Both the position numbers and the translations under genes were made by a program. A stretch of 64,000 bases of DNA from Candidatus Saccharimonadales bacterium. GTDB lineage: Bacteria > Patescibacteriota > Saccharimonadia > Saccharimonadales > UBA10212. Of this stretch, positions 50-2,882 are shown piece after piece. The stretch's first letter is position 1. The number at the start of each line of letters is the position of its first letter. Under the pieces are notes generated by a model that was given only the letters and a program-made list of their open reading frames with translations, did no database searches and was not told the DNA's origin. The stretch spans positions 331,242 to 395,241 of the forward strand of contig DASTXL010000001.1 of the NCBI GenBank assembly GCA_035758565.1, read 5' to 3'.

Positions 50-688
50 ATGGCTTTATTTCAAAAAAAACCAAACGTCACCAGTAACGCTCCGCTTTAC
101 ACTTTGGGGTCTAATAAAACTGTATTAATTATCGGCTTGGGCAATCCAGGGAACGAATACAAAAATACTCGCCATAACATTGGTTTTGTCGCGCTAGATT
201 ACTTTGCAGATAAAAACAACTTCCCGGCCTGGATCAGCAAGAAAGATTTAAAATGCGAGCTTAGCTCTACGAATTTGGGTGAAACCCGCGTGATTCTTTG
301 TAAACCGGCGACCTTTATGAATAACAGTGGCTGGTCCGCCCAGGCTGTGCAGCATTTTTATAGGATTTATAATCAAAGCACCCTGGTGATTTACGACGAG
401 CTGGCTATCCCATTTGGCAGCTTGCGCACAAGGGTTGGTGGTATCGACGCCGGCCACAATGGAGTAAAGTCGCTTATTCAGCATATTGGCGATGACTTTG
501 GCCGCTTGCGCCTTGGCGTAGCCAATGAATTTAGCGGCAAAGCCGATACTTCAGATTTTGTGTTGGGAAAATTTACTAAAGACGAGCAGGATCGGCTGCC
601 ACAGGTTCTACGCGAAGCCAACGCCATAATCACCGAGTTTATTTTTAATGGAAAACTACTGCCGGAGACTCGTAGCGTTCTAAGTTAG
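50..688 (+). CDS. pth: peptidyl-tRNA hydrolase
   Basis: 212-aa ORF with the N-terminal GLGNPGNEYKNTRHNIGF signature and GHNGVKS motif of the Pth family. Confidence 0.95.
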   Translation: MALFQKKPNVTSNAPLYTLGSNKTVLIIGLGNPGNEYKNTRHNIGFVALDYFADKNNFPAWISKKDLKCELSSTNLGETRVILCKPATFMNNSGWSAQAVQHFYRIYNQSTLVIYDELAIPFGSLRTRVGGIDAGHNGVKSLIQHIGDDFGRLRLGVANEFSGKADTSDFVLGKFTKDEQDRLPQVLREANAIITEFIFNGKLLPETRSVLS

Positions 689-1421
689 ACCTGACGAAGT
701 CGCCCCAAGCCCCAATAGCTTCATGATGAGCTTGCCTGCGACTTATCCCTCCACGATCGGGCCCCATAGCCATTTCAAGCTTTCCTGGTGTTTCCGGGAT
801 AGTGTCTACGATGGAGAGATCTTCTGAACCTTGCGGTCCAACCATTAAAACATTGCCAGGACCGAAAAGATCGGGATACATGCCTGTTACGCAGTGAAGT
901 TCTTTGATGCTTTCGACAATATCTCCAAGGTGCCGAAGTAGCTCTGAGGAAACAGGGTAGGAGAGCAGCTCTTCTGGAGATTGTAGGCTCTTTATAGGAT
1001 TAACCTCCGGCTGAACGGCAACAACAGCGTAGCCGCCAATTACTCTTGGCATCTTTTCGGCTGAGAAAGTAGTATCGACCCACCGATTACCTATAAATGA
1101 TTGAGCTATATCAGAGAGTTTCTGATACGATTTAGCTTCTTCTGCGGCCGTCTCTTTCGGCAGTCCGGTGGTGGATCGTAATATTTTCACGACTTCGCCG
1201 CTCTTGCGGAAAGCTATTTGTTCTCCACCAATTCCAAAGAATTCAGCACCAAGGTATCGCTCAACTTGACCCACAATTGGAGCGCTCATAGTTTTATAAA
1301 CCCCGACCAAAGCTAGACGCAGCATCGCGTTGCGATGTGGTCGTTCATCCAACATTTCTTGCGCAGTAGATTTATGAGCCTCTATGGCAAAACCGACAAA
1401 TTTATTCTTCACGCTACTCAT
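645..1421 (-). CDS. hypothetical protein, possibly a protein-kinase-like fold enzyme
   Basis: Track ORF 645..1643 trimmed to Met75 (MSSVKNKF...), because the upstream 74 codons are an R/G/K-rich read-through of perfect hairpin DNA. YPDLFGPGNVLMV...LSIVDT resembles a kinase catalytic-loop plus metal-binding Asp pattern. No SD seen. Convergent 44-nt overlap with the pth 3' end. Confidence 0.4.
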   Translation of the reverse strand: MSSVKNKFVGFAIEAHKSTAQEMLDERPHRNAMLRLALVGVYKTMSAPIVGQVERYLGAEFFGIGGEQIAFRKSGEVVKILRSTTGLPKETAAEEAKSYQKLSDIAQSFIGNRWVDTTFSAEKMPRVIGGYAVVAVQPEVNPIKSLQSPEELLSYPVSSELLRHLGDIVESIKELHCVTGMYPDLFGPGNVLMVGPQGSEDLSIVDTIPETPGKLEMAMGPDRGGISRRQAHHEAIGAWGDFVRSNLERYESPAVVFH

Positions 1422-1463
1422 AATTAAGATCTTGTATCTGATTCTATACTTAAAGAATCTACT

Positions 1464-1539
1464 CCGAAACTGGAAAGACTTCCGGAGGGGGTGGGCACCG
1501 CCGGAAGTCTTTCCAGGGGACGAGCACCTGGCTCGTCCC
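1464..1539 (-). terminator. tandem perfect hairpins (9-bp stem 1517..1539; 16-bp stem 1470..1516) followed by TTT on the minus strand
   Basis: GGGACGAGC-5nt-GCTCGTCCC directly abutting CTGGAAAGACTTCCGG-15nt-CCGGAAGTCTTTCCAG, then TTTCGG. Confidence 0.5.
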
Positions 1540-1964
1540 TTAAATACACCCTTCAACCCACCATGAAGCGAAGCTGTCCGGAGGCTCCTCGGAGCAAAAA
1601 CCGCGCCGGTCTTACGACCATCTTTTACGACTCGCCGACCCACATTGAATTGGGGTCCCCATTAAATTGCAAAGCAATTTCATGGGGTGAAAGTTAAAGG
1701 GGTTAGTTTGTTTAAGAGTTCCCAGCACCTAGAATGCAGATAATGGCGCGGCCATTATGTAGCTCAAACTTTATGGACAGTTAAACCGAAACCATATAAA
1801 GTTTTATCTAAGTTGAAGACTTGTCTTCGCTGCATTCTAAGTGCTGGGCTAGAAAGGTAAGTGGAGGGTACAACTTTGCCTCATCTAGATGCTCTTAAAC
1901 AATCTAACAAGATGTTAGAAATGGGGGTATAAGGTGCGTAAGTTCAGACAAACTGTACTTACGA
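1464..1964 (-). ncRNA. candidate ~500-nt structured RNA, unclassified (free-standing ncRNA or very long 5' leader of the 645..1421 gene)
   Basis: Bounded by a near-consensus promoter and tandem terminator-like hairpins. Contains a 19-bp helix (1721..1739/1830..1848) closing a three-hairpin junction, an 8-bp helix (1711..1718/1892..1899) and several more hairpins. No credible ORF. A G-U pair and a GNRA loop appear only in the minus-strand reading. Confidence 0.45.
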
Positions 1965-1970
1965 GTTGCA

Positions 1971-1999
1971 ATTTTAGCAAAATAGTTACGTTGTGTCAA
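1971..1999 (-). promoter_or_regulatory. sigma70-like promoter TTGACA-17 nt-TAAAAT
   Basis: Minus strand: TTGACA (1999..1994), 17-nt spacer, TAAAAT (1976..1971). Predicted start near 1964. Confidence 0.5.
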
Positions 2000-2018
2000 T
2001 ACTACTTAATGATTAACT

Positions 2019-2882
2019 ATGAAAGTCAATAGTCTTAAGCGGGATGACCCCAGTTTTCCGGCTATTCTAAAGCAGATTCATAGCGTTCCAGAACAGCTAT
2101 TCTGGTTAGGCTCGACCCCTGAAGAATGGCTACAGTTGCCGAGGGTTGCTGTTGTTGGTAGCCGCAAGGTAAGTGCTTACGGCCGAGAAGTTACCAGCCA
2201 ACTGGCAAAAGAGCTTGCCAAGCATGGCGTTGTAGTTATTAGTGGACTCGCGCTAGGTGTCGATTCGATTGCTCACCAGGCAGCCTTAGAAGTCGGAGGT
2301 CAAACAATAGCAATTTTGCCAGCCGGACTGGATAAGATTTACCCCGCTAGTCACGCTGGCTTGGCCCGGAGCATTATCGCCCATGGCGGAGCGTTAGTAA
2401 GTGAATACCCCCTTGGCGCAACACCCCATAAGCAAAACTTTATTGCTCGCAACCGAATAGTTAGCGGTCTTGTCGACGTATTAGTCATTACCGAAGCCGC
2501 AGCCGCCAGCGGCAGCCTGCACACCGCTCGCTTTGCCCTGGAGCAAGGGAAAACGGTGATGGCCGTACCGGGCAATATCACTAGTCCATTAAGCGAGGGA
2601 GCTAATAACTTAATCAAGAGCGGTGCAGTGCCGGTTACTGGCGTCGAAGATGTGTTATTTGCCCTAGGGTTGGAAATCGGGCAACAAAAAATTCCAAGAC
2701 TATTTAGCGGCAACGATCAAGAAAGAGCGGTATTTGAATTAATCACTAGCGGCATTACCGCTCAAGAAGATTTAGCCATTGAATTATCTCTGGACGGTGC
2801 AAGTTTGGCCACTATCTTAACAATGCTGGAAATTAACGGCCATATTCGTCCAGCTGGCGCCGGTTATTGGCTTGTTGCGTAA
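2019..2882 (+). CDS. dprA: DNA processing protein DprA
   Basis: 287 aa. VAVVGSRKVSAYG...ISGLALGVDSIAHQAAL Rossmann-like DprA core and C-terminal winged-helix-like tail. Confidence 0.9.
   Translation: MKVNSLKRDDPSFPAILKQIHSVPEQLFWLGSTPEEWLQLPRVAVVGSRKVSAYGREVTSQLAKELAKHGVVVISGLALGVDSIAHQAALEVGGQTIAILPAGLDKIYPASHAGLARSIIAHGGALVSEYPLGATPHKQNFIARNRIVSGLVDVLVITEAAAASGSLHTARFALEQGKTVMAVPGNITSPLSEGANNLIKSGAVPVTGVEDVLFALGLEIGQQKIPRLFSGNDQERAVFELITSGITAQEDLAIELSLDGASLATILTMLEINGHIRPAGAGYWLVA

Follow-up and report, generated by a model that had tools for sequence, protein, structure and literature searches.

Between an open reading frame (ORF) at 645..1421 and dprA (2019..2882), the window analyzed here, a 64-kb stretch of contig DASTXL010000001.1 from a Candidatus Saccharimonadales bacterium to which all coordinates refer, carries a gap of 597 bp (1422..2018), and the question raised by this locus is what occupies it. 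An earlier note on this DNA, which gave the size of the gap correctly, had described a minus-strand unit running from a promoter to terminator-like hairpins, and had offered two readings of it: a free-standing large non-coding RNA (ncRNA) without a known family, or an unusually long attenuator-type leader for the ORF, which it termed kinase-like. A search of Rfam and a test for conserved, covarying helices in related genomes were proposed as checks. All of the features named in that note were found again at their coordinates, and the analysis presented below points to the first of the two readings. The segment from about 1966 to 1465 on the minus strand is very probably an independently transcribed gene for a stable, structured ncRNA, which would represent a family present throughout Saccharibacteria (Saccharimonadia) and assigned to no Rfam family.

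Transcription signals and strand

The promoter at the minus-strand start of the gap (Table 1) was confirmed as near-consensus, agreeing with the sigma-70 consensus at 11 of 12 positions with a 17-nt spacer and a TG extension of the -10 box, and the RNA is predicted to start near 1967-1964. This arrangement is a constant feature of the homologues described below: the pattern TTGACN-(16-18)-TANNNT was found upstream of the RNA body in 110 of 110, with the TG present in 106 and a spacer of 17 nt in 101. At the opposite end, both 3' hairpins were recovered, one a perfect 9-bp stem (1517-1525/1531-1539) and the other a large hairpin (1470-1488/1498-1516) followed by TTT, whose 19-nt arms are 95% complementary, with 16 perfect pairs and two G-C pairs past a C.U mismatch. 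A strict terminator scan of the window did not call this large hairpin, because only UUU follows it here. Among the homologues, a U run of 3-8 followed the terminal stem in 109 of 110 and was at least 4 long in 92 of those 109. The RNA length estimated from these signals is 250-558 nt (median 354 in 110 homologues) and about 500 nt in the window.

The minus strand of the element folded to a minimum free energy (MFE) of -205.4 kcal/mol, compared with -139.4 +/- 6.8 kcal/mol for 100 dinucleotide shuffles (z = -9.76), none of which folded as well. As the plus strand folded equally well (z = -9.61), folding energy alone cannot choose the strand. The choice was made on G-U pairs, in that one pair of the terminal stem is G-U in 49 of 118 sequences and one pair of the long-range E-H helix is U-G in 51 of 56. 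On the other strand these would be A.C mismatches, and the minus strand is therefore taken as the RNA strand, as had been claimed.

Homologues in Saccharibacteria

Homologues were drawn from two sources, the 51 DprA loci of GTDB genomes and metagenome loci obtained from a scan of JGI/ENA contigs (both numbered with an L below). The DprA relatives, with one genome taken per GTDB species, were nearly all metagenome-assembled genomes (MAGs) of Saccharibacteria/Saccharimonadales at 45-64% identity, which places the window in Saccharibacteria. When the element was compared with the DprA loci by BLASTN, blocks of 80-100% identity were found just upstream of dprA on the opposite strand. A profile hidden Markov model (HMM) built from 29 copies of the element gave a full-length match in 38 of the 51 loci, all of which are labeled or placed as Saccharibacteria, and no match in the non-Saccharibacteria loci L043-L047, L049 and L050. 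With respect to more distant genomes, no copy adjoining dprA was found in the 'Saccharibacteria' MAG L048 or in the Gracilibacteria locus L049.

The metagenome scan used a pattern of 19 positions from two invariant blocks (block H and the terminal loop) and is limited to homologues in which no optional hairpin separates block H from the terminal hairpin. At least 120 loci in JGI/ENA metagenomes carried the pattern; among the matches listed, about 115 fit the profile over its length or to the contig end, and 3 visible chance matches were present among the metagenome loci listed. The same 19-position pattern gave 0 matches in IMG/VR viral contigs, and the window itself contains a single copy of the element.

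Two shorter forms were observed. Compact versions of about 235-250 nt occupy the same site in more distant, host-associated-type genomes (L035, L038-L042) and keep the promoter layout and the core motifs. A variant of about 300 nt in L080 (approximately 560-880), L110 and L138 is located downstream of pth in the same orientation and not by dprA, and the loop of its P4 hairpin reads UACCUCCAC, the exact anti-Shine-Dalgarno core.

Covariation of the helices

In the alignments, near-invariant blocks alternate with segments that differ in both length and sequence. From the 5' end the order is P1, block A, P2, P3 (enclosing P4 and a variable domain), ACUAAC, the E-H helix formed between blocks E and H (enclosing P6, P7 and P8) and the terminal hairpin. 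The terminal hairpin was tested in a gapless alignment of 118 sequences, using a slid partner strand and 500 shuffles as controls. The stem was 89.8% paired, compared with 40-54% when slid, double changes were seen in 13 of its 14 pairs, and none of the 500 shuffles equaled it. The 9-nt loop of this hairpin was invariant, and the two pairs adjacent to the loop switched jointly between GG/CC and GA/UU.

P3 and E-H were tested together on concatenated conserved columns of 56 sequences and were 95.6% paired versus 32-62% when slid, again with 0 of 500 shuffles equaling the real alignment. Taken individually, P3 was 95.5% paired with changes on both sides in 8 of 11 pairs, and in the 113-sequence profile alignment 11 of 13 pairs showed double changes. 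The E-H helix was 99.8% paired and almost invariant in the 56 sequences. Its end pair was C-G in 50, A-U in 3 and G-C in 3 (C-G 107, G-C 3 and A-U 3 in the 113-sequence alignment), a further pair was U-G in 51 and U-A in 5, and in L080, L110 and L138 the helix was longer by one A-U pair, gained on both sides. The tested pair of P8 was C-G in 29, U-A in 17, U-G in 9 and C.A in 1 of the 56 sequences in which both motifs could be located, and the top stem of P4, AAGU/ACUU, also covaried (A-U 106 with C-G 4; A-U 93 with G-C and U-A). Unguided RNAalifold prediction on a MAFFT alignment of 29 sequences of the other sequence class recovered P1, the extended P3, two internal helices and the terminal hairpin, with double changes in 28 of 52 predicted pairs. 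By these compensatory changes, which exceed those of the controls, the element is a conserved structured RNA.

The view that no RNA gene is present, and that the gap holds palindromic or repetitive DNA (a miniature inverted-repeat transposable element, a REP-like element or a recombination site) or a small coding region, can be judged on the same data. Stems of 19 and 16 bp are unusually long and perfect, as is more often the case in DNA palindromes, the two strands are alike in how well they fold, and an R/G/K-rich ORF (645..1643) reads through the hairpins. However, the element is present once in the window and at one syntenic site across the class, the 19-position pattern occurs in none of the IMG/VR viral contigs, and its long perfect stems are exactly the parts which are not conserved. 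The strand is defined by the G-U pairs, the promoter and the terminator, and insertions between the invariant blocks ignore the reading frame: distances between anchors show no preference for multiples of three, and the median longest ORF is 51 codons. The R/G/K-rich N-terminal extension to 1643 is, as the earlier note had it, a read-through of the 3' hairpins of the RNA. We give this view practically no weight.

Comparison with known RNA families

Rfam 15 (4227 covariance models) was searched at gathering scores and gave 0 matches in the 64-kb window and 0 matches to the element in 20 homologous loci. When the threshold was relaxed to E up to 10, positions 1300-2150 returned chance-level matches to unrelated families only, the best being BjrC80 with 23.4 bits against a gathering score of 80, and ten homologous loci searched at E up to 5 gave nothing consistent. 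Neither of the relaxed searches matched RNase P RNA, transfer-messenger RNA (tmRNA), signal recognition particle (SRP) RNA or 6S RNA. ARAGORN detected no tRNA gene or tmRNA in the whole window, and its failure to find a tRNA-like or tmRNA feature in 113 of 113 homologues, with the T-loop motif in 0 of 113, speaks against a tmRNA. SRP and 6S RNA were rejected on the search results and on the multi-domain fold with separate terminal hairpins. The RNA is not described in the literature searched, which comprised genome surveys of the Breaker laboratory, a human-microbiome RNA survey and Patescibacteria papers and was of incomplete coverage. With the Rfam and literature results both negative, the RNA is a candidate for a new RNA class.

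Another explanation would be a universal RNA that has drifted beyond the reach of Rfam, most plausibly RNase P RNA and after it tmRNA, SRP or 6S RNA. In size, in copy number (one), in having a strong promoter and occurring class-wide, and in the variable peripheral helices around its conserved core the RNA is RNase P-like, and block H (GGGUUGAAGGGUG) resembles what we take to be J11/12 of the E. coli M1 RNA (GGGUGAAAGGGUG), a likeness which we counted in favor of this explanation. Diverged RNase P RNAs of the candidate phyla radiation (CPR) are known to escape default Rfam thresholds, since 10 of 35 complete CPR genomes needed an RF00010 threshold of 5 bits and manual refolding (Lui et al. 2021, PMC8172020). 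The same study recovered RNase P RNAs of the RF00010 type, with 'many conserved features', from all of its genomes, among them two Saccharimonadia in which lowered thresholds were used. Among our 113 homologues, regular expressions for the RNase P motif CR-I (GNAANNUC / GGAAAGUC) gave 0 strict and 3 loose matches, and that for CR-V (ACNNRANNNGNCUUA) gave 0. The topology also differs, as the ends of the RNA are not joined, the 5' end forming a local hairpin in 95 of 95 sequences and the 3' end a local hairpin in the 118 sequences, and no P4-type pseudoknot is formed. The AAGU that superficially resembles CR-I is the covarying strand which pairs locally with ACUU in P4. A drifted universal RNA is on this evidence highly improbable.

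Genomic neighborhood

The RNA is present once per locus. In most loci pth is located downstream of the RNA and convergent with it, and the RNA occupies the 330-600 bp from the pth stop codon to the dprA start codon. Among the metagenome loci listed, dprA is divergent and lies 0-20 nt from the first position of the profile in nearly all those with room on the 5' side, while pth is convergent at distances of 0 to >5 kb. The window departs from this arrangement by the 258-aa ORF at 645..1421, which lies on the minus strand 43 nt 3' of the terminal hairpin. It is this same-strand position that would fit an attenuator-type leader. Of the 51 related loci, however, only two (L003 and L014) have a homologue of the ORF at the same position. 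Elsewhere the next gene is mostly the convergent pth, no same-strand gene downstream is conserved as would be expected for a leader or riboswitch, and the RNA is kept whatever lies downstream. Synteny and conservation regardless of the downstream gene thus identify a free-standing gene, and the leader reading is rejected as exceedingly improbable. The ORF had no match in Pfam, NCBIfam or PADLOC, which leaves the label 'kinase-like' unsupported, and it has the appearance of a lineage-specific insertion separating the RNA from pth.

On the 5' side, the ATG of dprA (2019), on the opposite strand, is located 20 nt past the -35 box of the RNA promoter, so that the dprA promoter must share sequence with the beginning of the RNA gene, which is read from the other strand. 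The same arrangement (1994-2021 in the window) is seen again in nearly all loci. Such tight linkage to dprA would suit an RNA gene acting in cis, either by promoter interference with dprA in the divergent control region that the two share or by regulated terminator read-through, giving antisense to pth or an mRNA of the 258-aa gene, with the alternative pairings described below as a sensor. It would also suit this explanation that the 3' end of the RNA abuts the end of pth in several loci, and that block H, which takes part in two near-isoenergetic folds, lies directly upstream of the terminator hairpin. Set against this, the distance to pth ranges from 0 to >5 kb with unrelated genes between, the variant in L080, L110 and L138 follows pth in the same orientation, and dprA is not adjacent in L055, L066, L165 and L170 in spite of room on the 5' side. 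Furthermore, the competing folds leave out the terminator stem, which is long, stable and provided with U runs in nearly every homologue. Cis action is considered very unlikely as the role of the RNA.

One further RNA element was noted in the neighborhood of a homologue. In L025, a 'Patescibacteria group' locus, a c-di-GMP-II riboswitch was found at 66-148, approximately 2.4 kb from the RNA, with 54 bits against a gathering score of 53.5.

Architecture of the RNA

The features of the RNA in the window are presented in Table 1. Judged from the alignments, its conserved core is made up of elements that the earlier note had not singled out, namely the invariant C-rich single strands, the helix 1693-1701/1549-1557 and the invariant 9-nt loop at the 3' end.

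Table 1. Coordinates and description of the predicted RNA gene, listed from promoter to 3' end
Feature	Position	Strand	Description
Sigma-70-type promoter	1971..1999	-	-35 TTGACA 1999-1994; TG 1979-1978; -10 TAAAAT 1976-1971
P1, 5' hairpin	1937..1963	-	CGUAAGUACAG-UUUGU-CUGAACUUACG; from MFE fold and repeat list
Block A	1923..1937	-	GCACCUUAUACCCCC; conserved, C-rich, nearly invariant; single-stranded in the favored model, between P1 and P2
P2 hairpin	1903..1919	-	UCUAACA-UCU-UGUUAGA; 84% paired, few changes
P3, 5' strand	1892..1902	-	UUGUUUAAGAG; pairs with 1718-1708; includes the 8-bp helix of the earlier note
P4 hairpin	1849..1889	-	within P3; invariant loop/top AAGUUGUACCCUCCACUU at 1876-1859
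Variable insertion domain	1721..1848	-	within P3; 19-bp helix 1848-1830/1739-1721 and three hairpins
P3, 3' strand	1708..1718	-	CUCUUAAACAA; partner of 1902-1892
Block E	1693..1707	-	ACUAACCCCUUUAAC; nearly invariant; CCCUUUAAC (1701-1693) is the 5' strand of the long-range E-H helix
P6, variable hairpin	1657..1687	-	found here; absent or different in many homologues
P7 hairpin	1638..1656	-	ACCCC-AAUUCAAU-GUGGGU; conserved 3' side UCAAUGUGGGU
P8	1568..1636	-	GGCGAG (1636-1631) with GCUUCGC (1574-1568); encloses variable hairpins including the GNRA hairpin 1619-1608
Block H	1546..1562	-	GGUGGGUUGAAGGGUGU; GUUGAAGGG (1557-1549) is the 3' strand of E-H; GGUGGG (1562-1557) invariant
Optional 9-bp hairpin	1517..1539	-	between block H and the terminal hairpin
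Terminal hairpin	1467..1516	-	hairpin 1516-1470; 9-nt loop UGCCCACCC at 1497-1489; U tract 1469-1467; intrinsic-terminator-like

P1 was assessed by folding each sequence separately. Each of the 95 distinct homologues formed a single hairpin of at least 7 bp; 34 different stem starts were represented, and the mean MFE was -9.7 versus -4.3 for shuffles. When the P1 region was aligned with MAFFT, the hairpin's two sequence classes were out of register, and RNAalifold for this reason predicted no structure there. The loop of P2 carries extra hairpins in L003, L020, L022, L025 and L030. The 8-bp helix 1711-1718/1892-1899 of the earlier note was found within a longer, 17-nt complementarity (1702-1718/1892-1908). 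In P4, ACCCUCC is at least 97% conserved and the sequence of the lower stem differs per lineage; the loop, here termed loop C, is UGUACCCUCC at 1872-1863, contains CCUCC and reads UACCCUCCAC in most homologues.

Several of the hairpins described previously are real features of the window without belonging to the conserved core. The 19-bp helix 1721-1739/1830-1848, with its one G-U pair, and the cloverleaf of three hairpins which it closes were present as described, but together they make up a lineage-variable insertion that is shorter, different or absent in L003, L010, L014, L024, L030, L032, L051 and others. The hairpins at 1517-1539, 1657-1687 and 1608-1619 (GGUC-GUAA-GACC) were likewise present but are variable insertions which many homologues lack. 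Those at 1740-1758, approximately 1760-1810, 1815-1828, 1903-1919 and 1937-1963 were found in the repeat list or in the MFE fold. Lineage-specific helices enter the RNA at fixed points, and the spacing of the invariant anchors varies widely, with 8-231 nt from loop C to block E and 63-201 nt from E to H. P7 is kept in the compact forms as GACCCC...GGUGGGUC and is missing or replaced in L024, L030 and L051, and the interior of P8 differs between lineages. The optional hairpin was found in 13 of 29 homologues, and block H lay 15-17 nt from the terminal loop where this hairpin was absent and 44-58 nt or more where it was present.

Two irregular copies were also noted. In L023 (approximately 2540-2735) an insertion of about 190 nt lies within the otherwise invariant block E, with inverted repeats TAGACTCCTCCCCAGATAAGTC / GATTTATCCGGGGAGAAGTCTA at its flanks, perhaps as an expansion helix or as a small mobile element within the RNA gene. 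Directly 3' of the terminator hairpin, a degenerate second terminal-loop motif (UGCCCACC...) is present at L001:2456-2504 and in the 3' flank of L005, which suggests a partial tandem duplication.

Alternative pairings

Two segments of the RNA have a choice of partner. GUUAG (1908-1904), the 3' strand of P2, can pair with CUAAC at 1914-1918 to form P2 or with the CUAAC of block E (1706-1702) to extend P3. The P3 extension was 94.6% paired with changes on both sides in 3 of 5 pairs, including AAUAA/UUAUU in L005, and P2 is backed by its pairing of 84% and by the hairpins inserted into its loop in several lineages. Similarly, the AAGG within 1549-1557 of block H can pair with block E (1693-1701) or with CCUU of block A (approximately 1931-1934). 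RNAalifold picked the A-H pairing, all columns of which are invariant. When the two pairings were forced in turn, the median energy difference between the folds was 3 kcal/mol on a total of about -180, and the unforced MFE fold was E-H in 37 and A-H in 10 of 56 sequences. Covariation in these alignments favors E-H and the P3 extension. The two conserved and mutually exclusive sets of pairings may constitute a conformational switch.

A pairing between ACCCCC of block A and GGUGGG, which RNAalifold also predicts, was not adopted, because block A varies in L007, L020, L024 and L032 while H remains unchanged. The 3' side of P7 (GUGGGU) was rejected as a partner of the terminal loop as well, the loop being still invariant where P7 is lost or replaced (L024, L030, L051). 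The invariant GGUGGG immediately 5' of the E-H strand has a perfect complement in the terminal loop sequence CCCACC(C), and this pairing is a likely tertiary lock, for which complementarity is the evidence because both sides are invariant.

Proposed function

Class-wide retention, a near-consensus promoter, a core with peripheral expansions, and invariant loops and joining strands point to a stable RNA that would act in trans. We tentatively propose, with chances well below even, that it serves as a scaffold, which could belong to a ribonucleoprotein or constitute a fold with catalytic or ligand-binding activity. In this model the invariant C-rich single strands ACCCCC, ACCCUCC and GCCCACCC would be displayed by the helices as a working surface that contacts a protein or G-rich RNA. 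Candidates for such contacts are block A and loop C, neither of which has a conserved partner inside the RNA. One of the C-rich strands would probably lock the fold through GGUGGG, and the choice of GUUAG between the two copies of CUAAC, together with that of block H between E and A, may let the RNA switch between two folds.

The same exposed loops would allow a second function, that of a base-pairing regulator or sponge in which C-rich loops containing the anti-Shine-Dalgarno core CCUCC bind G-rich or Shine-Dalgarno-like stretches of mRNAs or of a different RNA, in the manner of the C-rich small RNAs of Gram-positive bacteria but from a large scaffold. Loop C is suitable for this both in the form found in most homologues and in the exact anti-Shine-Dalgarno core of the L080, L110 and L138 variant, blocks A and C lack a conserved G-rich partner within the RNA, and the gene has its own promoter and terminator. 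The conserved, covarying architecture of 250-560 nt nevertheless exceeds what a seed-pairing small RNA (sRNA) would need, and no target was identified. Use of Shine-Dalgarno sequences also looks weak in the window, with a GGAG/GAGG-type motif upstream of 16 of 57 long ORFs in a lenient search, and anti-Shine-Dalgarno mimicry is for this reason only a minor rival. We regard a regulator or sponge as unlikely.

Returning to the trans-acting scaffold, the wider proposal is that of an undescribed class of large housekeeping RNA, universal to Saccharibacteria, in which a ribonucleoprotein core or ribozyme-like fold of 250-560 nt with C-rich surfaces and a two-state switch would have a role bound up with the reduced, epibiotic way of life of Saccharibacteria; we consider this proposal evenly balanced between right and wrong. 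Several points weigh against the identification of the gene and the mechanism proposed for it. The transcript, its ends and its abundance are read from sequence signals. The homologue set is biased, as it was collected from dprA-anchored loci and with the pattern from block H and the terminal loop. The compact forms in L035 and L038-L042 lack block A and P2, so neither of these belongs to the universal core. For the pseudoknot between the terminal loop and GGUGGG, as for the roles of blocks A and C, the basis is invariance, from which pairing can be neither argued nor dismissed, and the switch could be an artefact, given that the molecule contains several C-rich and G-rich blocks resembling one another. 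The neighborhood shows no conserved gene for a partner protein, and we know of no role for dprA or pth as RNA partners. Finally, the evidence for RNase P RNAs in Saccharimonadia comes from the genomes of Lui et al.

Significance and comparison with known systems

Saccharibacteria genomes are approximately 1 Mb in size and contain very little non-coding DNA. That 250-560 bp are kept at one fixed place throughout the class, behind one of the best promoters of the neighborhood, suggests an important and possibly essential function. If the proposal is correct, a CPR-specific RNA class would provide a new means of studying the unusual biology of translation, competence and host dependence in these bacteria, some of which are cultivable and genetically manipulable, and the RNA could also serve as a lineage marker.

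With respect to known systems, three comparisons can be drawn. RsaE/RoxS-type C-rich sRNAs of Firmicutes have unpaired C-rich loop motifs, their own promoter and an intrinsic terminator. The RNA described here resembles them in all three features, but it is three to five times larger, is built of multiple covarying domains with long-range helices, and is without an Rfam match. With class A RNase P RNA (RF00010) it shares the size range, the single copy, a core with lineage-specific peripheral helices and a G-rich block reminiscent of J11/12, while it differs in having no CR-I or CR-V, no P1 closing the ends, no P4 pseudoknot and no match to RF00010 or RF00011.

Few classes of large structured bacterial RNA are known, and each has opened new biochemistry, as with RNase P, tmRNA, OLE and the cage-forming ROOL and GOLLD. 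The closest parallels in overall form are OLE, ROOL, GOLLD and raiA/ModT. Like these, the RNA is encoded by a stand-alone gene of several hundred nucleotides in one bacterial lineage, its conserved junction and loop nucleotides are set amid covarying helices and variable insertions, and its neighbors do not reveal its function. Unlike these, it gives no match to their Rfam models, its hosts are Saccharibacteria of the CPR, and its motifs are C-rich single strands and a UGCCCACCC terminator loop. While GOLLD and ROOL are phage- or tRNA-associated, the RNA described here keeps a fixed synteny with dprA and pth.

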